This document shows, in pieces, positions 7,137 through 35,933 of a DNA stretch of 64,000 nucleotides. The stretch covers positions 8,037 to 72,036 of IMG/VR virus record IMGVR_UViG_3300037461_001312; one strand, given 5' to 3'. Numbering within the stretch: the first letter of the stretch is position 1; each line of letters starts with the position of its first letter. The notes beneath the pieces were generated by a model. It was not told where the DNA came from and did no database searches. It was given only the letters and a program-made list of their open reading frames with translations. This DNA is from a virus. Made by a program: the position numbers and the translations under genes.

Positions 7137-7137
7137 G

Positions 7138-17449: not shown

Positions 17450-17453
17450 GTGA

Positions 17454-17636: not shown

Positions 17637-17663
17637 ACGACACCTCCTTTAGTCTTCGCTCTG

Positions 17664-18017: not shown

Positions 18018-18020
18018 ACT

Positions 18021-18326: not shown

Positions 18327-18502
18327 AGCTTTCTCTCTGTATAGGTTTGGTCCACACAATGGCACTTCAGCTTTTCGATAACCTTTTTAGTCTCCTTGGC
18401 CCGTACCAGAGCACGGTCTGGATACCCGCTCTCCAGATGCTTGATGAGCTTGTCCAAGCTCTCATCGAACATACACAGGAGGTTGCCAAGGTCATACTTC
18501 AT
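18323..18502 (-). CDS. Small ORF (59 aa) below the track cut-off
   Basis: MKYDLGNLLCMFDESLDKLIKHLESGYPDRALVRAKETKKVIEKLKCHCVDQTYTERKL; stop overlaps the endolysin ATG. Confidence 0.55.
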   Translation of the reverse strand: MKYDLGNLLCMFDESLDKLIKHLESGYPDRALVRAKETKKVIEKLKCHCVDQTYTERKL

Positions 18503-18818
18503 CTGTTTGTCTCTTCGCCCTCTGTTTGAGCACTTTATTCTCTATTTCCATCGCATGGAGAGTACACTTGTACTCATGCTCTTTGACAGTCAGGAATGTC
18601 TTATGAATATCTGAGACATTTTCAACTACCTGTTTAAGCGTCGTCGCTGTCCCATTGATTCCTTGGACTGCTGACTCTATACTTCCTATTGTCTTAATAT
18701 AGAGCTCCTTGTCCACTTTCTTCTCCAATCCAAGAGAAAGTGAGCGGTACACAACACCAATCAAAGCAATGATAACAGCGGTAGCAATCGAGATAAGCGC
18801 AACGAGAGCCTGGTCCAA
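18492..18818 (-). CDS. Single-TM coiled-coil membrane protein (probable TTG start)
   Basis: ALVALISIATAVIIALIGVVY TM segment; GGAGG upstream; start position uncertain. Confidence 0.55.
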   Translation of the reverse strand: MDQALVALISIATAVIIALIGVVYRSLSLGLEKKVDKELYIKTIGSIESAVQGINGTATTLKQVVENVSDIHKTFLTVKEHEYKCTLHAMEIENKVLKQRAKRQTDEV

Positions 18819-18838
18819 TAGGGTAATCTCAACCTCCG

Positions 18839-19174
18839 TTATACCAATGCGTACGTGTACTTCTCCGCCCCGTAAGCCGCCCTGAGCCACTCCGCCGCCA
18901 CGTTGTGATCGAAGTCCACGCAGGAGTCGATGACGACGCGAGCAGACGACGACTCCGGCCAGGTGTGGATGAACAGGTGTGATTCCGCGATGACGAGGCC
19001 GCAGCTGAGCCCCGGGGGAATGGACCGGGTGAACGGCTCCCCGACCGGTGTCACCCCCAGCACGCTGCACATGGCCTGGATGATCGCCTCGGTGAACCAC
19101 GGGTCGGACAGGCGCCCGCAGGCGCAGTTGATCAGGATGATGCGGATGGTCTTCCCCCCGTCTACCTCGTGCAT
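18839..19174 (-). CDS. speD: S-adenosylmethionine decarboxylase proenzyme (class 1b)
   Basis: GLS.GLVIAE|SHLFIHTWPE self-cleavage motif, downstream DSC with catalytic Cys. Confidence 0.9.
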   Translation of the reverse strand: MHEVDGGKTIRIILINCACGRLSDPWFTEAIIQAMCSVLGVTPVGEPFTRSIPPGLSCGLVIAESHLFIHTWPESSSARVVIDSCVDFDHNVAAEWLRAAYGAEKYTYALV

Positions 19175-19176
19175 GT

Positions 19177-19371
19177 CTACCTCCCCTTTGCCCTGGTCCT
19201 CTTGGGCAGCTTCTTGCCTCTCGACTCTTTCAGGTGGCTCTTCAGCTCCGCCCGGGTGATGCTCGGGATCTTGGGCCGCTTGCCAGCCTTTCGCTTGGCG
19301 TACTCCGCTCCGAAGAGCCCGCGCTGGGCCTTAGACACGATCGGCGTGTGCTTTCGATGTTTCCCCGGCAT
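19177..19371 (-). CDS. Highly basic 64-aa peptide (possible DNA-condensing virion protein)
   Basis: MPGKHRKHTPIVSKAQRGLFGAEYAKRKAGKRP...; 13 K + 9 R versus 3 E; GGAGG RBS, ATG 19371. Confidence 0.75.
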   Translation of the reverse strand: MPGKHRKHTPIVSKAQRGLFGAEYAKRKAGKRPKIPSITRAELKSHLKESRGKKLPKRTRAKGR

Positions 19372-19421
19372 ACTATTTCCTCCCTTTCTTCTTCTTCTTC
19401 TTTCCACCACACGGCATACGA

Positions 19422-22400
19422 TCACCTCCCCTCTTTCTCCCTCTGCCACCTCAGCTTGCGCACCATGGACATCACGTCCGAGGTCAGCATCCCCTCCCTC
19501 CTGAGGTGGTACACGATCTTGTTGTACTCCTCCGGGGGCATGACCTTCTGGTACGTGGTCAGCAGCTCGGCCTTCTCCCTGTTGGTCCTGGCGAACACGA
19601 TCATGTCCACCTCCCTGCTGTTCTCCGTCCTCAGGGCGTACCGGGTGTACATGTTCTTGAAGCTGTTCCACGACGTCTCTTCCCTGTCGATCGTCCCGTT
19701 CCTGACCAGCTCCCGGTAGAGGCTGTTCGCCGCGGTGGTCGTCGGCTTCTTCCCCTCGTCCAGCTGCTTCTCCAGGCTGTGCCAGATCGCCTGCCGCCTG
19801 TCGTAAGCCCTCTGGGACGCGGCGTTCTCCGCCTTGGTGGCGGTCCACTCGTACCTCTGGCGCTTGCCGTAGTCGGAGATCTGCCAGTAGGTCCAGGCCA
19901 TGGGCCCCAGGATCGGTACTTTCTCGGACAGCTCCGTGTACAGCTCCTTCTCCTGGTACGGCACCGTCTCGGACCGGAAGGTGAACAGTCCCGCCGGGTT
20001 CTTGCCCAAGATCCTAGCCCCCATCTTCTCGGCCGCGTAGCCGGCGAAGGTCGAGGCGATCAGCCACCTGTTCCCCGTCTTCATGATGTAGTCGGGCACG
20101 ATCGGCTTGCTGGTGAATCCATCATACGGGTTCGCCCCGCGCAGGAGGTCCAGGGTCTCCAGCGACAGCCCCAGGAGCGGGTGGACGCTGCCGTACGGGT
20201 TCGTGTCCAGCACGAAGTCGAAGAAGTTGGACCACTCCGTCGGGTTGTACTGGAACTTGTCGCTGTGGAGGCCCTCATAGATCAGGTTCACCATGCGGTA
20301 GAACACGCTGCCTATCATCTGCGCGCCGTAGTCCGGGGCGATGCGCAGGTAGGTGGACTCCCCCTTGTCGGTCATCCCCGTGGGGATGATGATGTTGACG
20401 CTCTTGTTGTACTCCGAGATGTTGTCGAAGAACTTCTTCCAGTAGTCCCCGAGCCAGCCGAAGCCTGCTGCCAGCACCAGCATCTTAGGCAGTATCGTGG
20501 TCTTCATCGTCTTCCACACATACTCCGAGGCGAATAGGTTCTTGCTGCCGTGGATCCGGTACTCGTCGGTCAGCGCGGACCAGTGCTCCCGCCAGCCTTC
20601 CTTGCCCACGTTGGAGAACATGAAGATGGAGTTGTACAGCCAGGCCCAGTTGCCGCGGCGGTAGATGTCCGGGGTCCCTGCCCGGTTGCGGATGTCGTAC
20701 GCCATCTTCTTCGGCGCCGCGACCCAGCCGAGCTCGTCCTTGAGCCACTTGAGCCGGTCGTCCTGCCTCTTGCTCCTAGACGCTATCGCCTCGAGACCAT
20801 CCTTCTCCGCCTTCAGCTTGTCCACGTACTTCTTGCTGAGGCGGTACGATGCGATCTTGGTCCAGGCTTCCGTGAACTGCCCGAACTTGTCTACCGGGGC
20901 CACGACGGCGTTGTAGAACTTCTTCCTCAGCGTGTCCGCCTGCTTCAGGTCCTTGCCGTACATGTACTGCATCTGCTTCATCCGGCTGACTGCCGCGTCG
21001 GTGGTCTCCCTGGTCGGGTCGAAGGCGCGCCCGGCCACCAGCATCTTCCCCGCCATCATCTCGTCCACGTCGGAGTTCCACAGGTCCTTGAAGACGTAGT
21101 CCCACGCGACGCCCCGGGAGGCTATCATCTCCTTGACGAGGGCGGGGATGGTGAACCCCCGCATCTTCTTGTAGGAATCCACCATGTCGCGGGGCAGGTT
21201 GCGGATGATCCAGACGGGATTGTAGCGAACGAAGATGCTCTTGGAGATATTGGATATGAACAGCGCCGTCTTGGCGATGTGATGGGCCATGTACGGGTCC
21301 GTCTTGAACTGCTTGGCCACCTCTGGGCGGACGTGGAACCCCTTGATGACGCCCTTGTGCATCATGATGATGGTCTCGAACCCGGTCGGGGCGTTCTCCA
21401 GCATCCCGCCGCGCCCGTGCTTCGCGTCCTTCACTTCCTCGTCGCCCCAGAAGGCGCGGAGGGCAGCGACGGTGGTCTTCACCGCCATCTTCTGGTGCGT
21501 CGCACGGATCAATGCCATGTCCTTCAGGACCGTGGCGAGGAACGGGCTCAGGAGGTCGTCGTCGAGGTTGCCCGTGGTCTGGTACACCTGCGGGCGCAGG
21601 CCCTTGAATATCCCCTGGTCGGTGAACAACTGGTCTATGTGCTTCGCGCCGATGAAGTGCACGTAGTCCTTGTTCGTCTTCATCAGCCTCAGGTTCTCGT
21701 CGCTCAGGATCTCGGACTTCTCCACGTGGGGGGTGACGTACTTCTGCCTCATCTCGAAGAGCTTCTCCTTCAGCTCCCCCATCGCGTGGAACTTCTCAGA
21801 CCCGACCTTGCCCTTCAGCGCCTCGTACTGGTCCGTCGCGGTCTTCAGCCGGTACCCGCCTGGGAACGCCTGCCCCTTGAGCTGGTACTCGATGACGCGG
21901 CCGTACTTCAGGTACGCGTCGAAGTCGTCCTTGTCGATGCCCTTCTCCACCATGACCTTGATGACCTGGTCGTTCACGTGGTACTGGTACCGCGCCATCA
22001 GGTTGTCCACATACGGCGCCTCGGACAGCCAGTACAGCGGGTCCCTCTCCGGGTCCAGCGTGATCCCCATCTTGCGCAGGCCCTTGATGGCCGTGATCGT
22101 GCGCTGGTTCTTGTCGATGAAGTGGAAGTAGAAGTCCTGGGCCCGGACCCGCCACCAGGCTTTCTGCGACAGCTTCTCCTCCTCCACCTCCTTGTCGAAC
22201 TTCGCTTTGGTGTCCTGGAACCCCTTGCGGGTCAGCTCCAGCCGCGCCTGGTTCAGCTTCACCGGGTCAGACAGGTCCGCCTGGATGTTGTTGTAGATGT
22301 TCATGACCTTGGGCATCTTGTGCAGGTACTCGAAGAACCCGGCGTAGAACTTCGGGGCGATCTTCTGCAGCAGTCCCGGGTCCTGCACCAGCATGCTGAC

Positions 22401-25400
22401 CGCGTCGGAGTACAGCTCCCTGGACGAATAGCGGTGGCGGCGGTAGGCGGGGTCGACATTGTCCTCGTCGAAGGGTATCAGGGTCTGGCTCACCTGCTTC
22501 AGCTCGTCCGTGATCTCCGGCGCGCTGGCCAGGTCGTGGAAGTGCTTCTTCATGAACTTCTTCAGCTTGGCGATGCGCCCGAGGATATTGCCCCTCGCCG
22601 GACCGATCAGGTGCTCGTCCATCCAGTCGACGATGCGGCCGATCTGCTGGGCTATGACGGACAGTGCCTCGTCCTCGCTCTGGAAGATCTTGCTGGACAG
22701 CTTCAGCTTGCCGGTCTTGGTGTTGAATCTCCCCTTCTCCCCGTACTTGGTGGTCAGGTCGGGGAGCAGGCTGAGATTGTCGAGGGATCCGCCCATTGCC
22801 TGCTTCATGAATCGCACCGTCTCCGGCATCTCCATCGCGCGGAGGCGGACGATGTTGTTCGGGTTCGTGGGGGGCTGTGAGATGTTGGTGGTCGGCTGGC
22901 CCGGGGGGCCGGTCGTCTGCTGGACCGTCATCATGTCCGTCTTGCGCACCTGCGGCCCGGGGGCGGCTGGGATCTTGGACGCCTCGCGCTCCTGCCTCTC
23001 CGCTATGCTGTCGAACAGGCGATCAGCCAGGACCGGGTTGCTGGCCACGTGGTCGGCGAGGAGTTCCCCCTGCAGGTCCCCGTGGTTCAGGACCACATCG
23101 TCGAGAGAAACCTTGGCCTCTGTGGCCAGGGCTGCGTGGAGATACTCCATCATGGCGCTGTACGCCGTAGTCATGTCTGACGTGTCGACGACGACATCCG
23201 CCGCCCGGAAGAGGGCCGCCATCTCGCGGGCGGTGTTCTCGTTGGGCCAGTACGAATTATCGTACTCGGCTTCCAGGCTCATGCGATCCCCCGCGTTGGA
23301 CAGGTCTATGATGGAGGCAAACTTCGGGTGCCTGTTCCCAACCAGCTCGAGCCTGTCCTCTATGCCGGTTCCCGTTCTTATCTCCTCCATCCTGTTCACC
23401 AAGTAGCTGGCCGCGTTGTACAGCTTCCCGACCCCGCTGCGCACGACCCTCTGGGCTTCGGCCATGACCTGTTTGGCGTTCTTCACCGCCTGAGCATTGA
23501 TGGATTTGATGGTGGACTCGTCTATGTACCCGTTCCTGTGCGCCACGTGAGTCCCCTCGTGGTGGAAGATGGACGGTGTGACCCGGCCCACCGCTCTATG
23601 GCCTATGACGATGAACCTGCCGTTGTCTATGCTGGACGCGACAACGTCGTTGAGCCAGATGATGTCCTCAAAAGACGATCCTTCCAGCACCTCCTCGTTC
23701 GCGTGGATCACGACGAGCCCGGTGCCACCGTAGGCGTTTCTCATCGTGCGCAGGAACCGCTGGAACCCGGAGACCGTGTTCCGTATCACCCCGTCTATTT
23801 TGACCTGGTGTTCGCCTTTAAAAGTTTCCCTTCCAACGAAGTGAGCTCCTCCTCGCTCGCCCTTAGCATCCTTTGCGAAAGCAGCGGCTCTTGCTGCGGC
23901 GTGGACCCCAGCTTCGCCAGAAACTGGCTGATACGCCTGGCCCGCTTGCGCAGGTCCGCCGACGCCTGCAGCACCGCCTTGCTCGGCTGCGGCTCGTCCA
24001 GGTCCGCCAGCGCCCGGAACGATTTGCTCTTGAGCAGCTTCGGATCTACCTTCAGCATATCCCTCTGCGGCCAGCTCCCCTCCTCCTTCTCCTTCTTCAT
24101 CCGGCACACCTACCTTTCTGAATATGGTTTGCACTGCATTTGGGGCGAACACCTGCCTCTGCAGCGCGGGGGTACGCTCCACGTAGCCCAGGTCCAGGCC
24201 CTCGAGCGCTTCCCACTCCGCCCTGCCCTCGGGGCTGCGGAGATCCAGGTCCTTGCGCGCCTCGACCGCCTGCCAGACACCCTCGACCCGGTTGAACTTC
24301 ACGGTCTTGCGCAGGTCCACCGCTCCCATGGGCTTGGTGATGGCGAACCTGTCCCCGCGGTTCATCAGCTGCTCCGTGTCCGTGCCCCGGGGGTACTTGG
24401 CGCGGAGATCCTTGCGCAGGCCCTCGACGGGGATGCTGATGTACACCGGCACGTTGGCCACGTCCGGGGCGAGCAGCCGGTTCATGGCGGTGAGCACTCC
24501 ATGCCTGGGGGTCTTGCCCTGGAGCTTGTCCAGCCGGTTCTCGAGATAGTTGATCGCGTGGGTATACCTCGCCTCGTAGCGCTTGTACCGCCTCTTGGTC
24601 TCCGGGTCCAGCTTGTCCTCTTTGACCCCGGTGCTCTTCGCCTCCTCGTCCTTCCTCAGCGCCGGGGCGATGGTGGCCATCTCCCCGTAGATCTGCTTCA
24701 GGAGACCGCCGACGCTCTCTATCGTATGCTGCTCCTCGATGCCGATGACGGTGAGGACCCGCTCCTCCGCCTCCCACTGGGCCCTGTCGTAGCGCTCCTC
24801 CGGGGTCATGCCCACTTCGCGCATGGGGATCTGCTTCACCTTCATCCCCTTGGGCACGGGGGTCAGGTCCTTGCCCTTGAAGCGTGCTTCCGGGACAGTC
24901 CTGGCGACCTCGGCGACGGTCGGCCCGGCCTTCAGCTGTGCCGGTGTCACCGCGGCCAGGGTCTTGGTCCTCTTGCCCACCGGCTCGATGGGACCGACAC
25001 GGTAGATCCACACCCAAGGCTTGCCGGAGCGGAACTTGTCCATGACGTAGACTGTAGACCCCGGGGGCATGCGCCCGGACAGGGCCAAGCCGCCGCCTGT
25101 CGTATCCTGCGGGTTGTCGTACTTCCCGCTGTTGTCCCGGCGCAGCACGCCTTTCTCGTCCTTGACCACGACCGTGCGCACCGTGCCGGACTCGGGGTAT
25201 CTGAGGAACTTCCTCGCGCCTATGAGCCATTCCTCGGAGCCGGGGGACATAGTCGTCTCTATCACGACCGCGTTCTTGGTCCCGCGGAGGCTGCCCTTGG
25301 CAGAGACCTCGACTCTCCCGGTCTTGGGGCTGATGACGGCGCGGTTGAACACGGGGATGAGCTCGTTCTCGACAGCGGAGAAGGGCAGCAGGCGGATAGT

Positions 25401-28400
25401 GGGCGCACCGCCGGCAGCGGCGGGGATTTCCATGTCCTCCAGGGTCTTCGGTGCGGCGACTTTCGCCTCCTTCTCCTTGGTACCTTTCCTCTTCTCCTTC
25501 TCCGCCTCCTTGGTGACCAGCCACTCGCCCGGGGTCAGCATCCGCATGAACCTGCCCTGGTACTTCCCCGCCTCCTCCACCAAGAACACGTTCGGGTCCC
25601 TGCCCCACTTGCGGCCGAGGAATTCGTACACAGTCTTGGTGGTGGTCTTCTTGGTGAACGGGTTCGTGGTCTCCACCTCGACCTTGTCGAAGTCGAGCCG
25701 GAGCCTGCCCTGCTCCTCCAAGTCCGCCGCCTCTCGGCCACTGAGTATTCCCCTCGTCTCTACGTACGGCGCCTTGCGGGCCGCTGCGGCTGCGGCGCCC
25801 GCCTCCTTCGGCTGCTTGGCCTTCCAGTACTCGTTCGCGGTCTTCAGATCCGCCACGTACTGCTTCGCGTTGGCGACCATGGCTTGGAGATCTGCTATCC
25901 CCTCCTGCGCGGTCTTCCAGGGCAGCCCGTAGGACACCTTCTCCAGCTCCTTGGCATCCGACCCGCGCTTGGTCCGGATCAGCCCCTCGAGGACTCTGAT
26001 CCTCGCGTTTCGGTCCTCTATATTCCTCTCTGCCGCCTGTGTCTTCTGTGCTACGACCCAGTCCTCCGGGTCCACCATCTTGTCGTTGTAGCTGATCTTG
26101 CCGGACATGGCCACGGTCCCGCGGACCATGGCCTCGGAGAAGCGCTTCTGCAGGTCCGCCGTGCCTTTGGGGACCTCTATCGGCGTAGACGCCCGCTCCT
26201 CGTATATCTTCTTCACCCCCGCCAGCCTCTCCGCCTTCGCCTGGCCCAGCGCCTCCAGCATGGTGAGAGAGCTGTCCTGCCTCAGGATCTCTATGGCACG
26301 CGCGCGGTCCCGGATGCTCTCGTTCATCGCGTTCGCTTCCGCGTCCGTGACCCCGGCGTACTCCTCTACGGCCGGCTCCTCCACTGCTACCGGCGCGGGG
26401 GTCTCACCCTTGGCTACCGCCTCTATCTGCTCTCCACTGACGATCGCCTCCAGCCTCTCCTGGTCCTTGGTCTTCTTCTCCTTTACTACCTTGACCGGCC
26501 CCTTCTCGGTGAACCCCTGCATCGCGATCTTGCGTACCAGGTCCTCCCGCTTGCCCTTGGCGTAGCCGGTGATGCCCATGTACTTGGCCAGTTCCCTGAC
26601 CCGCTTGACGGTGACGTTCTTGTCCCTGAAGACGTTGTAGATCTCATCCTTGGTCTTGCCTATGAAGGAGTTGTAGAACACGTCCGGGGCCGGGGGCTTC
26701 TCGGCCACCTTCTTCTGCTTCGGCGGCGCGGCCTTCACCTTCTCCTTGGCCACCTCGGCCTTGCCCGCGTTCTCCTTGGCGACCTGCTCCTTGATCAGGG
26801 GCAGCGCGTCCCAGGCGGCATCTAGCCCGGAGATCGCACGCACTTCCATGAACCGGTCGAACACTGTCTTATTGCCGAAGTGTTTCAGGTACTTCCGCTC
26901 GACCGGCCTGCCCATGGTCGTACCCGTCTGGGCCGCGTAGTCCGCCCGCTGCGCCGCCTTCTTGGCCTTGGCCGCTGCGGACGTGGCCAGCTGCTCCTCG
27001 ACGGTCCCCTTCCTGTATGCCTCCTCTGCCCTCCTCTCTCCCTCGTCCTCCATCCCCCAGACCAGCAGCTGGTCCCGGTAGTCCTGGTCCACCATCGCCT
27101 TGGCCATATCGGCTATCTCATCCGGGTCGGCGTACTTCGCATAGCGCCTGGCCAACGTCGCCATCAGCGCCTTCTCATCCTTGGCCTTCAGCGCAGTGGC
27201 GAACGCTTCCTTCTCCCGATCCGCCAGCTCCATGTCGCGCTTGCCCTCTGCGGCAGCGGAGGAGTCCTTCTCCTGCTGGGCCCGGACTCTCGCGATGTAG
27301 TTCAGCCTGTCCTGTTTCCTGGCCTCGAACTGCTTGGCGTCCTCCCCTGCCCTGGGCCCGCCCTCTATAGGCGTCAGCATCTCCGCTTGCCTGGCCAGCC
27401 TGGCCTCCACGTTCTCCTTCTCGGCCTTCTCCAAGGCCATCATGTGCTTCTCGGCTATAGTCTCCGCCTTGGTCTTCACGCCCTGTCGCTTCCTCACCGC
27501 CTCGGCGTGGGCGACGCGCAGCTTCATCAGGGCCTTGTCCTCTTCGATCTTGGCCAGGGGGACCTTGGCCTTCCTCAGCTCGTCTACCCTGTCGTCTATC
27601 TGCTCCTCGAGAAGTCTGACGTCCTCGGGGATGGTGGCCTTCCTCCACATCTCGTCCTCGAGGCGGGCGATCTCCTCGTCGATGCCGGTGGGCTCAGTGG
27701 CCTTGGCGACCGGGGCCTTGGCGACCGGGGCCTTGGCAACGGGCTCCTTCGCCGCCGGCTCTTTCTCCGGTACGACCGCTGCCGGGACCACCTTCTTCCT
27801 CTTCTCTATCCCCTCCTTCACCTGCTCCAGGGTATATTCCCCGGACTCCACCAGCCTGGTCAGCTCCGGCGCTTTGGCGACATCCATTCCTGCCGCGGTC
27901 AACGCCGCCTCGATCTCGGGCTGGACCGCCTTCGCCTCGGGCTTGGCCACCGGCTCTGGGGCCTTGGCTACAGGCTCCTCTACTACTTTCTCCTGCTCCT
28001 TCGCCGGGGCCTCCACCTCTATCTCCCCTTCCAGCACCTTCCCCAGCGCCCCCTTCGGCTGCTTCTTCTCGAACTTCTCTACGAACAATACCCTTATCTG
28101 CCTGCCCAGCGGGTCCTCCCCTATCACCTCCCCGGTATTCTCATCCGTATCCGCTCCCGTCCCCAGCCTCGCGTCTATCTCGTCCCACGCCTTGTCCTTC
28201 TCGGATATGGGCCTGGACATCTCGGCGGGGACATGGAGTATGCCGTCCTCGCCTATAGTCCCTGGCTTTACCGTTATCCCATGCTTGGCCAGCTTCTCGT
28301 TCCTGGTCGTGACCCACTGGTCCGCCATCTCCCTGGTCCATGGCGTGGCCTTCTCAGCCTCCGCCTCGAGCTCCTCGATGTCGAGCTCCTCCTCTACCTC

Positions 28401-29945
28401 TTTCTTGCGCTTCTCGGCTTCCTCCTTGGTGAGGCCCAGTGCCGACGTGGCTCCTTTGGACGCACCCGCGGCAAAGCCACCCGTTATGATGGTCAGGAAC
28501 GCTGTCGGTCCTATGACGCTGAGAGCCTCTCTGAGGATATCCGCTGTCGGGCGTATGCCCGAGTACTTCTCCACGGCCGCCTGCCCGCCAGCCTGCCCCA
28601 CTTCCGTACCTATCTCGACTCCCAGGGTCTTGAAGAAATCCATCAGCTTCTGCTTGCCGGCCCGGCCAGCCACGGCCGCCTCGTCCAAGCCCATGAGTTT
28701 GCCCAGGTACTTGGACCCGAAGTATTCGCCTATCGCCTCGATGATGCCGGTCAGCGCCGGGGCAGTGCCGTACGCCTTGGACCGCATGATCTCGGCTTCC
28801 ACCATCTTCCCATCTTTCTCCAGCTGATCCGCAGCCTCCAAGGCCAGCGCCTTGGTGTTCTCGTACTGCTGCATGCCGAAGGCGGAGGCAACGGAGAAGT
28901 CGCCGATTCTGTTAGCCATCTTGGCAGCTTTCTTCGCCTGGTCCAGCAGCGCCGCCGCCTCTTTCGCCTTGGCTGCAGCCTCTTCTACACTGCCTGCGGC
29001 CTTCAGCGCCGTCGCAACCTCGCCAACCGCCCTCGCGTCTTTCACCAGGCCACCTATGCCCATCAAGGATCTCAGACCCAGCTTTATGGCGCCGCCGGGT
29101 ATGGCCGACGGGCCGAACATCTCAGCCCCTTTGTAGGCTATCCAGTCCAGGGTCTCCTCAGGGGCTTTGCCGTACCACTCGTCGCCCTTCTTCTCCGCCC
29201 AGTCGGATATGCCCTTGCCCACACCGGCGAGCTCCTCGGCTCCCAGGACATCCCCGAAGAACTCCATCATGGAGCCGCCCAGGCCCGGGACACCAGTCGT
29301 GACGCCGCGGGCAAAGCCCAGCCCGGCGGACTTGGCAAAGGACCAGAGGCCGCCTGAGAGCTTGCTCTTCTCCGGCTCTTTTTGCTGTGGTGCTCTCGCT
29401 TCCAAGGCCCGTACTCTGGCCTTAGCCGCCTCGACATAGTCTACCCGACCTGCCCGTGCCTGCGGTCGAGGACCAAGAATCCTCTCCTCTATGCTCAGGT
29501 CTTCATCCCCCTGCTCGGGCTGTACATCCTGCGACATCCCTCCGGACTTCAGCCCGCGGGCTACGTACTCCTCCGTGTCATACGGCTCCCCGTACTTGTT
29601 TACTCCCTTCCTCGGCTCATTCGGCTGCCCACTGTTGTGCTCCCTCAGCATCTGGGCAGGCGTGTACCCCTTGCGCTTCCACTCCCGGATCTGGGCACCC
29701 ATCACGTCTTCCTGGTTCTGCGGGACGGTGATGTCCTTCTCCTCGCCGAAGTGGCGCGTGGACCAGTCCTTCCACGTCGAGTCCTTGGTGATCTGGTATT
29801 TCCCATACCCCTTCGACGGGCTCTCAACGTGATAATCGCCACGGGATCTCTCTGCCGCGGCGATCATCGACTTGATCTGCTCGACCTCGTCCTCGTCTTC
29901 AGTCCCCGGGGCCGGGCCGAGTATAGACTCCTCAATACTGAGCAT
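19422..29945 (-). CDS. Giant (3507 aa) polyvalent internal virion/ejection protein
   Basis: N-terminal lytic-transglycosylase-like segment (AAE...GKYQI...TW...HNSG...YV), long A/K/E/P-rich region, HEGTH motif, LPD38-like C-terminus; last large gene of the ejection module. Confidence 0.8.
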   Translation of the reverse strand: MLSIEESILGPAPGTEDEDEVEQIKSMIAAAERSRGDYHVESPSKGYGKYQITKDSTWKDWSTRHFGEEKDITVPQNQEDVMGAQIREWKRKGYTPAQMLREHNSGQPNEPRKGVNKYGEPYDTEEYVARGLKSGGMSQDVQPEQGDEDLSIEERILGPRPQARAGRVDYVEAAKARVRALEARAPQQKEPEKSKLSGGLWSFAKSAGLGFARGVTTGVPGLGGSMMEFFGDVLGAEELAGVGKGISDWAEKKGDEWYGKAPEETLDWIAYKGAEMFGPSAIPGGAIKLGLRSLMGIGGLVKDARAVGEVATALKAAGSVEEAAAKAKEAAALLDQAKKAAKMANRIGDFSVASAFGMQQYENTKALALEAADQLEKDGKMVEAEIMRSKAYGTAPALTGIIEAIGEYFGSKYLGKLMGLDEAAVAGRAGKQKLMDFFKTLGVEIGTEVGQAGGQAAVEKYSGIRPTADILREALSVIGPTAFLTIITGGFAAGASKGATSALGLTKEEAEKRKKEVEEELDIEELEAEAEKATPWTREMADQWVTTRNEKLAKHGITVKPGTIGEDGILHVPAEMSRPISEKDKAWDEIDARLGTGADTDENTGEVIGEDPLGRQIRVLFVEKFEKKQPKGALGKVLEGEIEVEAPAKEQEKVVEEPVAKAPEPVAKPEAKAVQPEIEAALTAAGMDVAKAPELTRLVESGEYTLEQVKEGIEKRKKVVPAAVVPEKEPAAKEPVAKAPVAKAPVAKATEPTGIDEEIARLEDEMWRKATIPEDVRLLEEQIDDRVDELRKAKVPLAKIEEDKALMKLRVAHAEAVRKRQGVKTKAETIAEKHMMALEKAEKENVEARLARQAEMLTPIEGGPRAGEDAKQFEARKQDRLNYIARVRAQQEKDSSAAAEGKRDMELADREKEAFATALKAKDEKALMATLARRYAKYADPDEIADMAKAMVDQDYRDQLLVWGMEDEGERRAEEAYRKGTVEEQLATSAAAKAKKAAQRADYAAQTGTTMGRPVERKYLKHFGNKTVFDRFMEVRAISGLDAAWDALPLIKEQVAKENAGKAEVAKEKVKAAPPKQKKVAEKPPAPDVFYNSFIGKTKDEIYNVFRDKNVTVKRVRELAKYMGITGYAKGKREDLVRKIAMQGFTEKGPVKVVKEKKTKDQERLEAIVSGEQIEAVAKGETPAPVAVEEPAVEEYAGVTDAEANAMNESIRDRARAIEILRQDSSLTMLEALGQAKAERLAGVKKIYEERASTPIEVPKGTADLQKRFSEAMVRGTVAMSGKISYNDKMVDPEDWVVAQKTQAAERNIEDRNARIRVLEGLIRTKRGSDAKELEKVSYGLPWKTAQEGIADLQAMVANAKQYVADLKTANEYWKAKQPKEAGAAAAAARKAPYVETRGILSGREAADLEEQGRLRLDFDKVEVETTNPFTKKTTTKTVYEFLGRKWGRDPNVFLVEEAGKYQGRFMRMLTPGEWLVTKEAEKEKRKGTKEKEAKVAAPKTLEDMEIPAAAGGAPTIRLLPFSAVENELIPVFNRAVISPKTGRVEVSAKGSLRGTKNAVVIETTMSPGSEEWLIGARKFLRYPESGTVRTVVVKDEKGVLRRDNSGKYDNPQDTTGGGLALSGRMPPGSTVYVMDKFRSGKPWVWIYRVGPIEPVGKRTKTLAAVTPAQLKAGPTVAEVARTVPEARFKGKDLTPVPKGMKVKQIPMREVGMTPEERYDRAQWEAEERVLTVIGIEEQHTIESVGGLLKQIYGEMATIAPALRKDEEAKSTGVKEDKLDPETKRRYKRYEARYTHAINYLENRLDKLQGKTPRHGVLTAMNRLLAPDVANVPVYISIPVEGLRKDLRAKYPRGTDTEQLMNRGDRFAITKPMGAVDLRKTVKFNRVEGVWQAVEARKDLDLRSPEGRAEWEALEGLDLGYVERTPALQRQVFAPNAVQTIFRKVGVPDEEGEGGGELAAEGYAEGRSEAAQEQIVPGAGGPGRAAAEQGGAAGVGGPAQAGQAYQPVSGEAGVHAAARAAAFAKDAKGERGGAHFVGRETFKGEHQVKIDGVIRNTVSGFQRFLRTMRNAYGGTGLVVIHANEEVLEGSSFEDIIWLNDVVASSIDNGRFIVIGHRAVGRVTPSIFHHEGTHVAHRNGYIDESTIKSINAQAVKNAKQVMAEAQRVVRSGVGKLYNAASYLVNRMEEIRTGTGIEDRLELVGNRHPKFASIIDLSNAGDRMSLEAEYDNSYWPNENTAREMAALFRAADVVVDTSDMTTAYSAMMEYLHAALATEAKVSLDDVVLNHGDLQGELLADHVASNPVLADRLFDSIAERQEREASKIPAAPGPQVRKTDMMTVQQTTGPPGQPTTNISQPPTNPNNIVRLRAMEMPETVRFMKQAMGGSLDNLSLLPDLTTKYGEKGRFNTKTGKLKLSSKIFQSEDEALSVIAQQIGRIVDWMDEHLIGPARGNILGRIAKLKKFMKKHFHDLASAPEITDELKQVSQTLIPFDEDNVDPAYRRHRYSSRELYSDAVSMLVQDPGLLQKIAPKFYAGFFEYLHKMPKVMNIYNNIQADLSDPVKLNQARLELTRKGFQDTKAKFDKEVEEEKLSQKAWWRVRAQDFYFHFIDKNQRTITAIKGLRKMGITLDPERDPLYWLSEAPYVDNLMARYQYHVNDQVIKVMVEKGIDKDDFDAYLKYGRVIEYQLKGQAFPGGYRLKTATDQYEALKGKVGSEKFHAMGELKEKLFEMRQKYVTPHVEKSEILSDENLRLMKTNKDYVHFIGAKHIDQLFTDQGIFKGLRPQVYQTTGNLDDDLLSPFLATVLKDMALIRATHQKMAVKTTVAALRAFWGDEEVKDAKHGRGGMLENAPTGFETIIMMHKGVIKGFHVRPEVAKQFKTDPYMAHHIAKTALFISNISKSIFVRYNPVWIIRNLPRDMVDSYKKMRGFTIPALVKEMIASRGVAWDYVFKDLWNSDVDEMMAGKMLVAGRAFDPTRETTDAAVSRMKQMQYMYGKDLKQADTLRKKFYNAVVAPVDKFGQFTEAWTKIASYRLSKKYVDKLKAEKDGLEAIASRSKRQDDRLKWLKDELGWVAAPKKMAYDIRNRAGTPDIYRRGNWAWLYNSIFMFSNVGKEGWREHWSALTDEYRIHGSKNLFASEYVWKTMKTTILPKMLVLAAGFGWLGDYWKKFFDNISEYNKSVNIIIPTGMTDKGESTYLRIAPDYGAQMIGSVFYRMVNLIYEGLHSDKFQYNPTEWSNFFDFVLDTNPYGSVHPLLGLSLETLDLLRGANPYDGFTSKPIVPDYIMKTGNRWLIASTFAGYAAEKMGARILGKNPAGLFTFRSETVPYQEKELYTELSEKVPILGPMAWTYWQISDYGKRQRYEWTATKAENAASQRAYDRRQAIWHSLEKQLDEGKKPTTTAANSLYRELVRNGTIDREETSWNSFKNMYTRYALRTENSREVDMIVFARTNREKAELLTTYQKVMPPEEYNKIVYHLRREGMLTSDVMSMVRKLRWQREKEGR

Positions 29946-29962
29946 CAGCGCTTTCTCCTTGC

Positions 29963-31426
29963 CTACTCGGACAGCTTAGCAAGCTCCTCCTCCAATCTCC
30001 TGGCTGTAGCTTCGTCCTTTCTCATCCTCGCTCGTCGTATCCCATACTCCAGCCTCCTTCGCTCCTCCGCCTGCTTGGTCGGCTCAATCCACTGCTTGTA
30101 AGGGATGTGACCTGTTGCGTTCGGGGGGGCCATTCCTACTCCAGGCCCTGCCATTAGCCGGCCTCCTGGAGCGCGCGGCACCGACACTGGCCTGGGCCCT
30201 TCCTCTCCCTGCTCCCGCTCCGGCTTAACCGACACAGGCTTCCTCTCCTTCTTCAGCTCCTCCGCCTCTCTCCCTATAACCCCCCTCATCTGCTCCACTC
30301 CCACCCTGGCCATGGCAATCTTCTGCTCCCTGGGAATATTCATTGGGAGGAACTTTCGCAGTAGCCCTTCGTACAGAATCCGGTCCTGGCCCATGACCCG
30401 GTACGGCGCGTCTAACTCATCCTTATCCTTCAGCTTCTTGACTATCTCCCTCTGTCCTTTCGGGCTGTTCACCTTGGCCACGCTGAGGCCCAAGACTTCC
30501 TCGCTGTGCCTCTTGTACATATTGTCGTATCCCTCATCAATCACCCTGGTGCGTTCCCTGGCCTGCTCCTCCGTCTCGTTAGCAGGACCCCCGGGGTAGA
30601 ATCCCATCTTATCCTTCTCTCCGAACTGCTGCTTCATCCGCTTCTCTTCCAAGCCGTGACGGAGCGTCAGGTTCTTCTCCGCGTGCGACAGGGCCTGGTA
30701 GTCTATCTTCTCCTGACCCTTCCTCAGCTCGGTCGCCCTGTTGCTGAATCCCGAGGCAGCGTTCAACAGTCCCTTCCTGCTTTTCTCGTCCGGAGCCTCT
30801 TCAGCTTGGTTCTTCAGCCCCTCGGCAGCCCTGTCCAAGGCGTTCGCGTCATCGAAGAGCCACTTCATCTTGCCTGGGTCTATGGACCTGTTGGCGAAAT
30901 CCCACCTTTGCCCGGTTTTCCTGTCATACAGGTCCCACCCGCCTTTAGGGTTCATGCGCACCAGTGCGGATCCGTCATCGCCCATCAGGGTGTGAGCACT
31001 GTTATAGTACTTCATGAACGTGGCCGCGTCAGGCTTTCTCCCCCGGCTGGTGGCTAATTCTTTGTATTTGCTGAAGGCCTGGGACGCGCTGGGAACATTC
31101 CCTGTCTTCTCGTACTCCTCCAGCAGCGGGCCTACTGACTCAGACATGATGTCCTCGTCCAGCTGCCCCTCCTGCCTCCGCGTCTCCTCCGCCTCGGAGA
31201 TCTTCACCTGCCTCTCCCGCAGGGACATCTCCTTGTCCACCTGCTTCTGCCTCTCCATAAACTCCTGCTTCCTGCGGTCCATCTCCTGCTGCTGCATATA
31301 GCTCTGCACCGCTTTCCAGCCAGAGTCGCCCAGCGCTCCTGCGGACCTGGGGTCGGATGCCCCGGCGAAGGCCGAGAGCGCTACAGGCAGTAGCTGCTGC
31401 ATGTCGACGTTGTCGAAGATTCCCAT
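29963..31426 (-). CDS. Putative ejection/internal virion protein (487 aa)
   Basis: Amphipathic N-terminus, charged helical body; position between the gp14-like gene and the giant protein. Confidence 0.6.
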   Translation of the reverse strand: MGIFDNVDMQQLLPVALSAFAGASDPRSAGALGDSGWKAVQSYMQQQEMDRRKQEFMERQKQVDKEMSLRERQVKISEAEETRRQEGQLDEDIMSESVGPLLEEYEKTGNVPSASQAFSKYKELATSRGRKPDAATFMKYYNSAHTLMGDDGSALVRMNPKGGWDLYDRKTGQRWDFANRSIDPGKMKWLFDDANALDRAAEGLKNQAEEAPDEKSRKGLLNAASGFSNRATELRKGQEKIDYQALSHAEKNLTLRHGLEEKRMKQQFGEKDKMGFYPGGPANETEEQARERTRVIDEGYDNMYKRHSEEVLGLSVAKVNSPKGQREIVKKLKDKDELDAPYRVMGQDRILYEGLLRKFLPMNIPREQKIAMARVGVEQMRGVIGREAEELKKERKPVSVKPEREQGEEGPRPVSVPRAPGGRLMAGPGVGMAPPNATGHIPYKQWIEPTKQAEERRRLEYGIRRARMRKDEATARRLEEELAKLSE

Positions 31427-31438
31427 GAGAGTGTCCTC

Positions 31439-31972
31439 CTATCCTCCTAAGTAATCCGCACCGCCCCAGGTGCTCGGGTCGTTGTACCCGTATCCTGAGC
31501 TCGGGTAATACATCGGCTGCTGCTGCTGCACCTGGTTCGCCGCCCTCCACATGAGGGGCGCAGAGGCTATCATCCCTGCCGACAGCGCACTGGGCTGCAC
31601 GGGCTGGTTCGGTATCGCCCCGTGCGGGGAATACAGCGTGTTGAGCGCCCGCATCTGCGGCCCGTACATGCCGGGAAATGTCTGTCCGCCGAAGTTGACG
31701 TTCATCCCCGTGGGCATGCTGCGGATCTGCCCGAGCAGCCGCTCTTGGATATCGGACGGGATGTTCTGCATCGTGTACATCGGGCGGCCCCCGGACTTGC
31801 TGTCCCCGTCGTCCTGGGTCATAGCCCCCAGCAGGGTGGCCGCACCCATGGCGATGTACGGAGCCGCCGCCGCCCAGCACCGGGCTACCGGGCCGGAGTA
31901 CTCGTAGGAGTCCTCCTCTTCCACCTTCCCGGTCGCGATGTCTATCACTATTTTGTTATAGATCTTTCCCAT
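31439..31972 (-). CDS. Ejection protein, T7 gp14-like N-terminal motif after a 31-aa leader
   Basis: True start ATG 31972 (AGGAGGAG RBS): MGKIYNKIVIDIATGKVEEEDSYEYSGPVAR-CWAAAAPYIAMGAATLLGAM. Confidence 0.75.
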   Translation of the reverse strand: MGKIYNKIVIDIATGKVEEEDSYEYSGPVARCWAAAAPYIAMGAATLLGAMTQDDGDSKSGGRPMYTMQNIPSDIQERLLGQIRSMPTGMNVNFGGQTFPGMYGPQMRALNTLYSPHGAIPNQPVQPSALSAGMIASAPLMWRAANQVQQQQPMYYPSSGYGYNDPSTWGGADYLGG

Positions 31973-31974
31973 CT

Positions 31975-32466
31975 CTACATCTCCTCCTCTCTGCACCTCG
32001 CGTCCATCGTCTCCTTCTCCAGCTTCTCCGCATCGGTGACTCTCCTCACCAAATACCCCTGTAGCTTGATCTCCTTCCCATGCTTCTTGAACAGCTTGAT
32101 CCACGCTGAGGGATCCCGGTACGTGATCCACCAGATGTCCTCCGTCCCCAGCTTCTCCTCGATCATGGAGTAGATCTTGGGCGTGATGCCGCTGTTCGGA
32201 GTGTACGCGTGGTCGATCACGATCCTCTTGCCGGTCGGGAGGATGTACAGGGACGCGATGATGAACCCCACCGGGGAGTTGTCGTCGTTCAGCACCATGC
32301 AGGACAGCTTGAACGGGTTGTGGCACTCCCGCCTGACCTGGGCCAGGATGTCCTGCGGGCTGTCGTGGTCACCCGACTTGGCGATATACTTCGGGATCAG
32401 GCTCTCCAGCAGCACCTTTTCGTACTGCCGGAACGTCTTCATTGTCGCTATCCGCTTTATTTTCAT
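31975..32466 (-). CDS. Putative GNAT-fold acetyl/acyltransferase (T7 gp13-like position)
   Basis: About 160 aa; beta-strand pattern MVLNDDNSPVGFIIA...IVIDHAY; directly upstream of the gp14-like gene. Confidence 0.5.
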   Translation of the reverse strand: MKIKRIATMKTFRQYEKVLLESLIPKYIAKSGDHDSPQDILAQVRRECHNPFKLSCMVLNDDNSPVGFIIASLYILPTGKRIVIDHAYTPNSGITPKIYSMIEEKLGTEDIWWITYRDPSAWIKLFKKHGKEIKLQGYLVRRVTDAEKLEKETMDARCREEEM

Positions 32467-33352
32467 GGAGCTCCCACTCGTCTATCTCCCGTTGGTATGG
32501 GGATTTGAAGAAATACGCGTACTGCAGGTTCTTCCTCGTGCTGGCCTCCAGGTGCGACAGGTCGTACATCTCGTCGTTGCCGAACCAGAACACCGACTGC
32601 GCCGTGTTGGGGTTCAGGTACGCCAGCCCCGGGGGCACCTGCATCTGCACGGGCCGGGGGGTCGCCAGGCAGAAACCGTTCTGGGACGGCGGCGTGTGCA
32701 GGGGCAGGTGGACCTTGTAGGGGAACACGGCGTACTTCGGGAACGCCGCCGACATCGTCCGGACCAGGCACCCTGCGGCCTTGGGCTGGACGTACGGGGA
32801 CACCATCTGCGTGGCGAACACGCCGTCTTTGGCCAGTTTCCCCTTGCGAATTTCCTCGAAATGTTCTACAGTATACAAGCCAACCGAGTAAGGGGCAGTC
32901 GGGTCAGTATAATCGGCAATGATAAGCTCATATTCCCCGGCCGTATCCTGCTCCGCGACGTCTCCCCTTACCCAGTCGGCCGCGTCGGCGTGAACGATGT
33001 CCAGCCGACTATCGTCAGGAAAGTCCAAGAAAGTCCGCGCGGTTTCCACCACATCCGGATCAAGCTCCACCAGAGTCAGCTTCTCTATGGGAAACACGGC
33101 CAGCAGCAGCCGGGCGAGGTAGCCGTCGCCGCCGCCGAGTACAGCCACGCGGCGGGCGTGCTGGGTGAACATGTACGGGATGATGCCCAGGCACTCGTGG
33201 TACCGGTGCTGGTCGTAGGTGGTGAGCTGGACTATCCCGTCGAGCGTGAGGATGCGCCCGAGGCCTTGGGCGTCCTCCCACACTTGGATCAGCTGGTACC
33301 TGCTGCGGTACTCGTAGATCCTCTTCAGTCCTTTGATGTCTTCCATTTTCAT
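32369..33352 (-). CDS. speE: Spermidine synthase (aminopropyltransferase)
   Basis: LDGIVQ, YHE, VLGGGDG, VELDPDV, ADYTDP motifs; start MKMEDIK at 33352 (ATGA-coupled). Confidence 0.9.
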   Translation of the reverse strand: MKMEDIKGLKRIYEYRSRYQLIQVWEDAQGLGRILTLDGIVQLTTYDQHRYHECLGIIPYMFTQHARRVAVLGGGDGYLARLLLAVFPIEKLTLVELDPDVVETARTFLDFPDDSRLDIVHADAADWVRGDVAEQDTAGEYELIIADYTDPTAPYSVGLYTVEHFEEIRKGKLAKDGVFATQMVSPYVQPKAAGCLVRTMSAAFPKYAVFPYKVHLPLHTPPSQNGFCLATPRPVQMQVPPGLAYLNPNTAQSVFWFGNDEMYDLSHLEASTRKNLQYAYFFKSPYQREIDEWELHENKADSDNEDVPAVRKGAAGEPDPEVYRQVG

Positions 33353-34539
33353 GCGGTTGTGTACCCCAGCATCTTGTCGTACGGAGCGTACCAATTGGGC
33401 ATCTGGTTGCTTATGCCGGTCCCGTAGTTACCATAGTTGTTGAACAGGTTCGTGTTCCAGTTCGCCGTAGCAGTGCCCAGCTGCCCGAGATTGTTTATGT
33501 TCCCCTGGTTGTAGTTCCCTGCGGCCGTGCCCAGGTTCTGCCAGCCCGTAGCTATATTCCCCTGCAGGGGGCTAAGAATATTGTACGCGCTTGTGATCGC
33601 CTGCAGCTGGTCCCCCCGCAGCTTCGCCCCGACATTGGCCATCCCGACCTGGTTCGCCCCGTACTGGTTGCCTATCGTGCCATAGTTGCTGTATCCGGTC
33701 GTGAGGTTGTTCTGGAAGTTCTGCATCTGCTGGCCCAGAGTCTGCCACCCGGTGAGGGCGTTCCACTGCCACTTGTTGTACAGGCTCCCCATCGTGTCCG
33801 TTATGCCCCTGTCCGCCGCGCTGCCGCTGGCGTACCCGGTGCGGCCCAGTGCCCGCATGACGGCCTGGACCTCAGGCAGCACCGCGCCGCGGAACGCCCC
33901 CATGTCGGACATCGCGTTGAGGATCGCCTCCTGCTGCGGGGCGTACTCCAGACCCTTGGCCTTGATAGAATCCAGGTACTCTTTCAGAGGGCCTCCGTAG
34001 AACTCCAATCCTCCGCCGCCGCCCAGCGAGCCCAAGCCATTCTGCAGGCCGGTAATGAAGTTAGTAAGATTCGTCCCGGTGCCTTTCATGTTGGCCAGCG
34101 CCGTCTCTGCGTTACCTGCATAGGGCAGGCCGGCAGCGACGTTGCTCTGGATCATGTTGTAGATCTCGTTGCCGTACGGGAGCCCTTGGGCCTGCATTTG
34201 CTGCAGCAGGGCCCACTGCGCCTGGTTCGCAGGCAGGCCGGCTATGGTATTGTACATCTCATTAGGCGTGGGGTAGTTCAGCGTCGGTGCCGCAGTGGCG
34301 TAGGCGGGCGCGCCCACGGTCGGAGGAGGAGCAAGCGATGTCCTGGGGTCGGCCCATCCGTTCCAGCTATAGTCTGGGTAACCAGGACCCGCAGCGCTGT
34401 CCCCAAGATATCCTCCACTAGAGTCCCCTGCCGTACCCATGCCGTAGCACTGCGCCACCGGCCCGTCGTACTCGTAGTAGTCCTCGTCCTCTATCCTGCC
34501 TGAGTCGATGTCGATCACTACCCTGTTGTATATCTTCAT
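33349..34539 (-). CDS. G/N/Q-rich ejection (pilot-like) protein with a 30-aa leader ending GPVAQC
   Basis: MKIYNRVVIDIDSGRIEDEDYYEYDGPVAQ-CYGMG; low-complexity Gly/Asn/Gln/Ala composition typical of DNA-transfer proteins. Confidence 0.75.
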   Translation of the reverse strand: MKIYNRVVIDIDSGRIEDEDYYEYDGPVAQCYGMGTAGDSSGGYLGDSAAGPGYPDYSWNGWADPRTSLAPPPTVGAPAYATAAPTLNYPTPNEMYNTIAGLPANQAQWALLQQMQAQGLPYGNEIYNMIQSNVAAGLPYAGNAETALANMKGTGTNLTNFITGLQNGLGSLGGGGGLEFYGGPLKEYLDSIKAKGLEYAPQQEAILNAMSDMGAFRGAVLPEVQAVMRALGRTGYASGSAADRGITDTMGSLYNKWQWNALTGWQTLGQQMQNFQNNLTTGYSNYGTIGNQYGANQVGMANVGAKLRGDQLQAITSAYNILSPLQGNIATGWQNLGTAAGNYNQGNINNLGQLGTATANWNTNLFNNYGNYGTGISNQMPNWYAPYDKMLGYTTA

Positions 34540-34549
34540 AGTCTGTCTC

Positions 34550-35917: not shown

Positions 35918-35933
35918 AGACTGCTCCCTTCCT

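Follow-up and report, generated by a model that had tools for sequence, protein, structure and literature searches.

The 64-kb window considered here (the whole stretch of DNA that was analysed, part of a 75,278-bp virus record with a 127-bp terminal repeat) belongs to an uncultured podovirus whose DNA is present in several wetland metagenomes. It carries, on the minus strand, two genes for enzymes of polyamine synthesis: speD (18839..19174), whose product is a class-1b pyruvoyl S-adenosylmethionine (AdoMet) decarboxylase homologue of 111 amino acids (aa), and speE (32369..33352), encoding a 327-aa SpeE-type aminopropyltransferase. Both lie in a minus-strand block of about 50 kb that holds head, tail, putative ejection and lysis genes. 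An earlier sequence-only reading had called both as enzyme genes that keep their catalytic motifs. The calls were confirmed by family matches above the Pfam cut-offs, and alignments to the solved structures 1TLU and 1INL agreed on the motifs, so that both enzymes look catalytically intact.

SpeD matched the Pfam family AdoMet_dc (PF02675) with an E-value of 4.9e-16 (59.4 bits against a cut-off of 25; 60.7 bits in the whole-genome search) and is the sole PF02675 match across the 75,278-bp genome. The best PDB match was the AdoMet decarboxylase (AdoMetDC) of Thermotoga maritima, 1TLU (E 5.7e-08), with the ESH...HTWPE...C core aligned. The phage residues E64-S65, H70 and C85 align with 1TLU, where S65, H70 and C85 correspond to S63, H68 and C83, residues that have been named as essential in the T. 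maritima enzyme (PMC10407285), and self-cleavage is predicted to occur between E64 and S65. In a family alignment of 21 SpeD members (alignment A2, relatives at 50-89% identity), E64, S65, H70, P73, E74, C85 and the HTWPE motif were all invariant. The SpeD of cyanomyovirus S-PM2, a validated AdoMetDC, is 110 aa long (PMC9992855), and a length of 111 aa should therefore suffice for activity. The ratio of nonsynonymous to synonymous substitution rates (dN/dS) was 0.17 for SpeD when compared with the related locus L099.

The processing residues are common to AdoMet, arginine and ornithine decarboxylases and so do not discriminate among the three activities. SpeD could thus be a pyruvoyl ornithine or arginine decarboxylase (ODC or ADC) that supplies the diamine, with SpeE using decarboxylated AdoMet from the host, and the outcome would still be polyamine synthesis. 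Many phage SpeD homologues are indeed ODC or ADC (PMC9992855, PMC10407285), the phage encodes no other diamine-forming enzyme, and SpeD scored 50.8 bits against the NCBIfam AdoMetDC equivalog TIGR03330, below the cut-off of 75.65. In contrast, both prolines of the central region, P54 and P73, are invariant in the 21 SpeD relatives, and one central proline marks true AdoMetDC as opposed to the ADC type (PMC10407285, where its position is given in a figure only). A tblastn search of phages with SpeD retrieved SpeD of the cyanophage type only, for which AdoMetDC activity has been validated, and the ADC type of pelagiphages was not among the matches. The best PDB match being an AdoMetDC also speaks against a shifted substrate, as does the presence of one SpeD and one SpeE in the genome, which is the normal pairing of partners. 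We regard an ornithine or arginine decarboxylase as an unlikely but still appreciable possibility.

SpeE matched the Pfam family Spermine_synth (PF01564) with an E-value of 4.6e-23 (82.2 bits against a cut-off of 22.9), and 25 solved aminopropyltransferases matched it at E < 1e-13. When SpeE was aligned to T. maritima SpeE (1INL, E 1.3e-23), the GGGDG motif, the Glu of LVELD, the adenine-side Asp-Ala and both Asp residues of IIADYTDP were all aligned. G74, G75 and G77 of GGGDG are invariant together with D147 in a 23-member SpeE alignment (alignment A1, 39-80% identity), and G73, D76 and D150 are present in at least 90% of its members. The gate loop is of the same length as that of T. maritima SpeE and both acceptor-side Asp residues are present, which favours a small diamine as the acceptor. 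The D-x-x-D-P motif and this gate-loop length are common to spermidine, thermospermine and agmatine aminopropyltransferases. The sequence-only reading had offered a protein terminus as another possible acceptor; this found no direct support, and the same loop length and Asp residues argue for a small diamine instead. In the AlphaFold model of SpeE, the mean predicted local distance difference test (pLDDT) score was 81.9, with confident prediction through residue 291 and values below 50 in the tail; this tail (residues 292-327) is acidic and disordered, and its coding sequence overlaps the next gene. The dN/dS of SpeE compared with locus L095 was 0.18. Both enzyme genes follow the codon usage of the phage, with a GC content at third codon positions (GC3) of 0.77-0.89 that is typical of it. 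Judged by their substitution patterns, SpeD and SpeE are functional, long-resident genes under purifying selection, because their dN/dS of about 0.17 is like that of the giant gene of the same block (0.16) and their GC3 is typical of the phage.

Two further observations concern SpeE. One of its relatives, P0023 (49% identity), has SGGRG in place of GGGDG and FVTPP in place of YTDPT; key Asp residues, including that of the loop, are lost, and this protein has probably either lost its activity or taken on another role. The interior of speE (32937-33158) is matched without mismatches by a 222-nt contig of a wetland metatranscriptome. We did not count this contig as evidence of expression, as DNA carry-over is possible and two other short RNA contigs fit poorly.

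The late block belongs to a phage whose portal is of the T7 type (phrog_332, E 8e-25), whose major head protein is HK97-like and whose adaptor is of the SU10 type (PF24175). Megablast against INPHARED found no close relative of the phage, IMG/VR searches likewise found none close, and the sole match of the portal was to Anabaena phage A-4L at 22% identity. In transcription order, the SU10 adaptor gene is followed by genes for proteins of 705 aa, 225 aa, 455 aa (with a lectin fold) and 396 aa, then by speE, and then by genes for proteins of 163 aa, 177 aa, 487 aa and 3507 aa, the last being the giant protein. After the giant gene come a 14-aa open reading frame (ORF), a gene for a 64-aa protein, speD, a low-GC membrane protein gene, a candidate M15-type endolysin gene, holin-like and spanin-like genes and a terminator. 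The junctions from the 396-aa gene to speD range from -98 to +17 nt. The only strong minus-strand terminator-like site within 16600-36500 is an intrinsic-terminator-like hairpin at 16633..16668 (minus strand, 16-bp stem followed by a T run), which closes the late block; the giant ORF contains the one other minus-strand site of this region, a weak 5-pair stem, and all further sites belong to the plus strand. Apart from that weak stem, no minus-strand promoter-like or terminator-like site was found in the interval from speE to speD, and a promoter-like match and the terminator are located downstream of speD. The two genes are 13 kb apart, as described earlier, and lie in one tightly packed late block. 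The overlap between the stop codon of the 396-aa gene and the start of speE (ATGA), taken before as translational coupling to the upstream gene, is also real, and speD was correctly said to follow the giant protein and a basic peptide, the order being the giant gene, the 14-aa ORF, the gene for the 64-aa protein with an isoelectric point (pI) of 11.9, and speD.

These positions are conserved among relatives. SpeD follows the giant protein in all relatives that were found through SpeD (L001-L004, L099-L101 and L103; 50-77% identity). One or two proteins with a pI of 11.6-12 separate the giant protein from SpeD in L001-L004 and L099-L101, and in L103 an acidic 108-aa protein stands there instead. 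The position of SpeD holds despite exchange of the lysis enzyme downstream, which may be of the M15_3, M15_4 or SLT type or, in L103, be absent. Random positions of the two genes relative to ejection genes in relatives had been set beforehand as the outcome that would refute the sequence-only reading, and they were not seen. A metagenome scan with the C-terminus of the giant protein returned one 2.4-kb contig, L102 (32% identity), with no SpeD visible downstream; we gave this contig no weight because it is so short and may contain too many errors. L111/L112, from a similarly built podovirus and spanning the adaptor to the operon end, has neither SpeD nor SpeE, and L104 has no SpeD at its operon end. 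The genes for SpeD and SpeE are, by this distribution, accessory because L111/L112 lacks both and L104 lacks SpeD at that position.

Directly downstream of speE lies the gene for the 163-aa protein (31975..32466, minus strand), which overlaps the 3' end of speE by 98 nt. No Pfam or NCBIfam hidden Markov model (HMM) matched this protein. The structure model (pLDDT 85.9) retrieved GNAT acetyltransferases from the PDB with Foldseek (E 7e-08 to 1e-05), including mammalian spermidine/spermine N1-acetyltransferase (SSAT), the polyamine acetyltransferase DpA and HPA2, and structure matches in the Atlas agree on a GNAT fold with template modelling scores of 0.60-0.68. The model therefore confidently predicts a GNAT acyltransferase fold. 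The conserved acetyl-CoA loop Q/R-x-x-G-x-G/A was not found in the alignment of the GNAT-fold family: the putative loop, P-N-x-G-x-A, is variable among relatives, and only six columns are invariant. The family is small and phage-only, with 41 clusters among 1.84 billion representatives. A gp13-like label for this protein was dropped, hhalign giving a probability of 0.1% for T7 gp13 against the GNAT-fold family.

SpeE is encoded directly upstream of the GNAT-fold gene in all nine of the relative contexts, usually overlapping it, and ejection-like genes come next wherever the contig is long enough. Some of these contexts were reached through SpeE (L095, L005, L006/L007, L098 and L104), and three were reached from distant members of the GNAT-fold family (L108, L109/L110 and one contig for which only a gene list was available). 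In L111/L112, a GNAT-like gene at the edge of the family (hhalign probability 96%) occupies the same slot and is preceded by a gene for an unrelated 212-aa protein rather than by speE. Since a GNAT-like gene is present in that slot without SpeE, the GNAT-fold gene is, as far as gene order tells, the one that belongs to the slot, which SpeE joined in one sub-lineage and in which it stayed. A complex prediction for SpeE(1-295) with the GNAT-fold protein gave a score of 0.05 and was used neither way.

The overlap itself is unusual in that the last ~32 codons of speE are overprinted, in another frame, on the first 32 codons of the GNAT-fold gene (32369-32466), the speE part encoding the acidic, disordered tail. 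It is retained at 98 nt in the 80%-identical L095 (1379-1476); more distant relatives are tailless, with overlaps of 4-25 nt. The genes next to the pair also vary among relatives. In L005 (7351-9724; SpeE 53% identical), speE is immediately preceded by two genes of the radical SAM/SPASM peptide-maturase-like kind, the better of which matches the PapB family at E 1.6e-65, below the cut-off, and a 63-aa Cys-rich ORF follows just after speE. In L104, a 67-aa YcgN-type Cys-cluster protein is encoded after the SpeE-GNAT pair (2788-2991), and in L006 the pair is followed by a gene (6855-7412) for a 185-aa protein with weak sulfotransferase matches and no NCBIfam match.

The strictness of this pairing, seen in nine of nine contexts with three of them found from the GNAT side, raises the question of whether SpeE and its partner might act on a macromolecule. 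Under such a scheme, the target of the two proteins would be DNA or the product of a neighbouring virion or ejection gene, and the slot would be a cassette for modification of the particle. The radical SAM/SPASM genes of L005, the YcgN-type protein of L104 and the weak sulfotransferase-like gene of L006 are in keeping with this, and the Tyr that follows the catalytic Asp of SpeE, conserved in the family, is unusual. Nevertheless, a gate loop as long as that of T. maritima together with both acceptor-side Asp residues leads one to expect a closed pocket for a small diamine, and the analysed phage has no radical SAM gene in its genome. In addition, the leader peptide of the flanking proteins (described below) is absent from relatives that still keep the SpeE-GNAT pair, and the distant GNAT member in the L111 slot stands there without SpeE, indicating that the GNAT-fold protein does not need SpeE. 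Polyamine-linked hypermodification of DNA was rejected, as no hypermodification genes (hydroxymethylase or kinase) were seen among the early genes scanned, which did not include every small ORF. We consider modification of a neighbouring protein or of DNA to be rather unlikely overall. Its particular form in which SpeD supplies the donor and the SpeE-GNAT pair, rather than producing free spermidine, aminopropylates and perhaps acylates the packaged DNA or a protein of the virion or of ejection seems improbable.

Whether the two enzymes stand among ejection genes at all depends on the identity of their neighbours, for which the sequence-only reading had used the labels ejection gene and internal-virion module. 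The 396-aa Gln/Asn/Gly-rich protein encoded upstream of speE (33349..34539, minus strand) has a 31-aa N-terminal leader and no Pfam or PHROG match; homologues of its C-terminal part are encoded upstream of speE in L006/L007 and L095, and it can be considered tail- or ejection-associated by position only. Downstream of the GNAT-fold gene, the 177-aa protein (31439..31972, minus strand) consists of a 31-aa leader followed by CWAAAAPYIAM and is a putative inner-core or ejection protein. After the leader, it resembles the start of T7 gp14, MCWAAAIPIAI, over an 11-residue motif; no BLASTP alignment was found between T7 gp14 and the 177-aa protein, and tblastn searches of all phages with the 163-aa and 177-aa proteins returned nothing. 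The 487-aa charged protein (29963..31426, minus strand), in a gp15-like position, has no family match and has homologues in L095 and L005. In the gp16-like position is the 3507-aa giant protein (19422..29945, minus strand), without Pfam, PHROG or PDB match, whose C-terminus is 50-83% identical in L001, L002, L099 and L100. For the N-terminal 150 aa of the giant protein, a likeness to viral SLT domains is seen in the language-model features of the Atlas only (score 0.95), and a Pfam SLT search of the whole genome found nothing.

Similar to T7 gp13-gp16, these genes follow the tail genes in the order small protein, protein with a hydrophobic CWAAA-type N-terminus, mid-sized protein and large protein with a possibly lytic N-terminus. 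They differ in having no detectable sequence homology to the T7 genes, and the T7 slot contains no enzymes. The label therefore stands in part: the T7-type portal, the SU10 adaptor, the gene order, the gp14-like 11-residue motif and the SLT-like N-terminus of the giant protein speak for it, whereas PHROGs, Pfam, BLAST and hhalign gave no homology of the neighbouring genes to T7 core proteins. We would call an ejection module plausible but weakly founded.

The 396-aa and 177-aa proteins have this leader in common (M-K-I-Y-N ... G-P-V-A-x-C; 34447-34539 and 31880-31972, respectively), and it is specific to this phage. The gp14-like proteins of relatives begin directly at the hydrophobic segment, with MAWVYPAV, MSWVGPAI or MGWFLPAV.

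The late structural placement had been taken earlier to suggest a role in the virion. In its strongest form, SpeE, SpeD or both would be packed in the capsid with the ejection proteins and act at the start of the next infection, and it is in line with this that both genes hold conserved positions among genes for putative internal or ejection proteins and that speE is translationally coupled to the gene upstream. The 31-aa leader of the flanking proteins is missing from both enzymes, however, and neither matched a virion-family PHROG, with SpeE having no PHROG match and SpeD matching AdoMetDC PHROGs only, so that the proposed virion role was not upheld. The enzymes also need AdoMet and a diamine, which the newly infected cell already processes, L111 retains the module without either enzyme, and a literature search returned no report of polyamine enzymes in a structural module. 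Delivery of the enzymes with the particle is in our view improbable too.

Taken with the moderate confidence that the evidence allows, the two genes are probably expressed late and serve to make spermidine, or a triamine like it, from AdoMet and a diamine of the infected host cell. We propose that they are accessory metabolic genes, each held at an insertion point of its own in the operon, and that their products are not parts of the virion. The mechanism that we infer, covering activity, acceptor, timing and purpose, would begin with self-processing of SpeD at Glu64-Ser65, yielding a pyruvoyl enzyme that decarboxylates AdoMet. SpeE would then move the aminopropyl group onto a small diamine supplied by the host, most likely putrescine, to give spermidine or a close analogue. 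The genome contains one SpeD and one SpeE, and a search of it found no pyridoxal phosphate (PLP) decarboxylase, arginase or agmatinase; the diamine must therefore come from the host. With both genes read within the late virion and lysis transcript, for which the junctions of -98 to +17 nt and the single strong terminator are the basis, polyamine would rise in the cytoplasm while capsids are being filled. It could then neutralise the charge of DNA at packaging, alongside the basic small proteins encoded next to speD, and could help to keep late translation going. The heads of T4 contain putrescine and spermidine, which offset some of the charge of the DNA, and such a purpose at packaging would be plausible here. 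The basic small proteins beside SpeD fit this theme as context and not as evidence.

A number of points weigh against polyamine synthesis of this kind. Like SpeD, SpeE falls below the NCBIfam equivalog cut-offs, scoring 149.7 against 260 for NF002010 and 115.2 against 249.55 for TIGR00417. The T. maritima enzymes SpeE (1INL/1JQ3) and SpeD (1TLU) are the best solved relatives and all catalytic residues align; compared with T. maritima SpeE, however, the phage SpeE bears the disordered acidic tail and differs at two further points. It lacks the first ~35 residues of the canonical N-domain, the alignment beginning at T. maritima residue 36 (the N-domain family PF17284 scored 23.7 against a cut-off of 22.1 over profile positions 21-52 only, and the model has four N-terminal strands). 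In addition, its catalytic Asp is followed by Tyr, at a position that is Ser or Cys in spermidine synthases (Ser in T. maritima). Its closest cellular relatives are the catalytic domains of membrane-type aminopropyltransferases of ~500 aa (NCBIfam NF002956, e.g. in Blastococcus), to which it is 37% identical over the catalytic domain, with alignment through residue 287; the phage protein differs from these in having no membrane domain. Among 80 IMG/VR loci with a distant SpeE, SpeD was within the flanks in 11, adjacent or fused in nine of these and ~6 kb apart in two. In L104, which has the SpeE-GNAT pair, a 633-aa terminal protein is followed by a basic peptide of the DUF3008 type and there is no SpeD at that place. 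Lastly, polyamine synthesis leaves the 13-kb split and the strict SpeE-GNAT pairing unexplained.

Virus-encoded polyamine synthesis was described only in 2023, when Li et al. (PNAS; PMC9992855) reported many phage SpeD genes and found SpeD together with SpeE in only one phage and two algal viruses. Those pairs, from an uncultured freshwater Caudovirales phage and two phycodnaviruses, likewise combine a class-1b AdoMetDC with an aminopropyltransferase, and virus pairs of spermidine synthase and AdoMetDC restored spermidine in Escherichia coli mutants (PMC9992855). Their genes are adjacent (PMC9992855), whereas in the phage analysed here the genes are 13 kb apart in a late structural operon and speE is paired with a GNAT-fold gene. 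The SpeE and SpeD described here are unrelated to the Li et al. sequences at close range (33% for SpeE at best in IMG/VR). Microcystis phage MaAM05 (MW495066; speE, speH_2) was the only true phage with a SpeE match among 50,697 phage records; it also has SpeD, but is a 274-kb jumbo phage with the two genes ~0.8 kb apart, and identity was 32% for SpeE and 29% for SpeD. The other two records that matched SpeE were set aside: the first is an assembly of a Salmonella chromosome, and the second is a 5-kb fragment without annotation that we read as bacterial DNA. The validated AdoMetDC of cyanomyovirus S-PM2 has the same core motifs as the phage SpeD (110 vs 111 aa, ~29% identity); unlike the phage analysed here, cyanophages carry SpeD alone and outside the structural operon.

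A 13-kb split inside a structural operon, with a GNAT-fold partner, is thus a new arrangement of a known pathway. With the adjacent pair of one phage being the only phage case of SpeD and SpeE known in 2023, the lineage described here represents a second, stable solution in which each of the split genes has its fixed place among the late virion and lysis genes of the operon, with a small GNAT-fold gene always next after speE. Should the enzymes have the predicted activities, this layout would tie polyamine supply to the time of DNA packaging and would provide a genetic handle on the old observation of polyamines in phage heads. It would also suggest that some hosts supply too little of the right polyamine; spermidine production is low in some Gram-negative groups. 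Were the acceptor of SpeE a different one, the particle would be modified in a new way, and if the slot were truly a modification cassette, this would be the first viral aminopropyl modification of a macromolecule by a SpeE-type enzyme. The SpeE-GNAT pair is the most testable new feature, and the three proteins concerned are small and easily expressed, with clear assays.

The genes between the giant gene and speD are very small. A Lys-rich ORF of 14 aa (MPCGGKKKKKKGRK; 19373..19417, minus strand), read from the sequence, is a candidate coding sequence, and the gene for the very basic 64-aa protein (19177..19371, minus strand) ends 2 nt before the start of speD. The 64-aa protein itself has no Pfam match; its counterparts in relatives show weak matches to DUF6496 or DUF3008. 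In most relatives, one or two basic proteins of 49-68 aa with a pI of 11.6-12 are encoded between the giant protein and SpeD (L001, 3613-3970; L099, 1011-1391). It is possible that these basic small proteins near SpeD are DNA-condensing internal proteins.

The variable lysis region begins downstream of speD with the gene for a 111-aa protein that has an N-terminal transmembrane segment, a GC content of 0.43 and a weak PHROG holin match (18492..18827, minus strand; E 0.054). It is followed by the endolysin candidate of the Peptidase M15 type (18021..18365, minus strand), which matched Pfam Peptidase_M15_4 at E 2.4e-04, below the cut-off, and a PHROG endolysin at E 5.4e-05; the lysis gene at this position in relatives is of the M15_3 or SLT type. 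The 117-aa protein (17664-18017) has a signal-like segment ending in A-Y-A-C, which is lipobox-like, and in the 110-aa protein (16788-17120) a coiled coil comes after an N-terminal membrane helix. The two proteins resemble an o-spanin/i-spanin pair. A Gram-negative host is suggested by the spanin-like pair and the lipobox-like 117-aa protein.

Outside the late block, the early and replication genes encode a helicase, an AAA_24 protein, an ERCC4 nuclease, a PolA with a uracil-DNA glycosylase domain and an HNH protein, among others, those for the helicase, AAA_24 protein, ERCC4 nuclease and PolA being on the plus strand. The family-A DNA polymerase (10220-12829) carries an N-terminal domain of the uracil-DNA-glycosylase superfamily (E 1.3e-25), and the same fusion is present in L001 and L099. 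Inside the head module, an HNH endonuclease gene (55593-56123; phrog_5046, E 4.8e-14) adjoins the gene for the major head protein. The GC content of the genome is ~0.60, compared with 0.43 (GC3 0.35-0.45) for the gene of an 849-aa tail-region protein (40352-42901) and for the 111-aa membrane protein gene (18492-18827), both of which are probably recent acquisitions.

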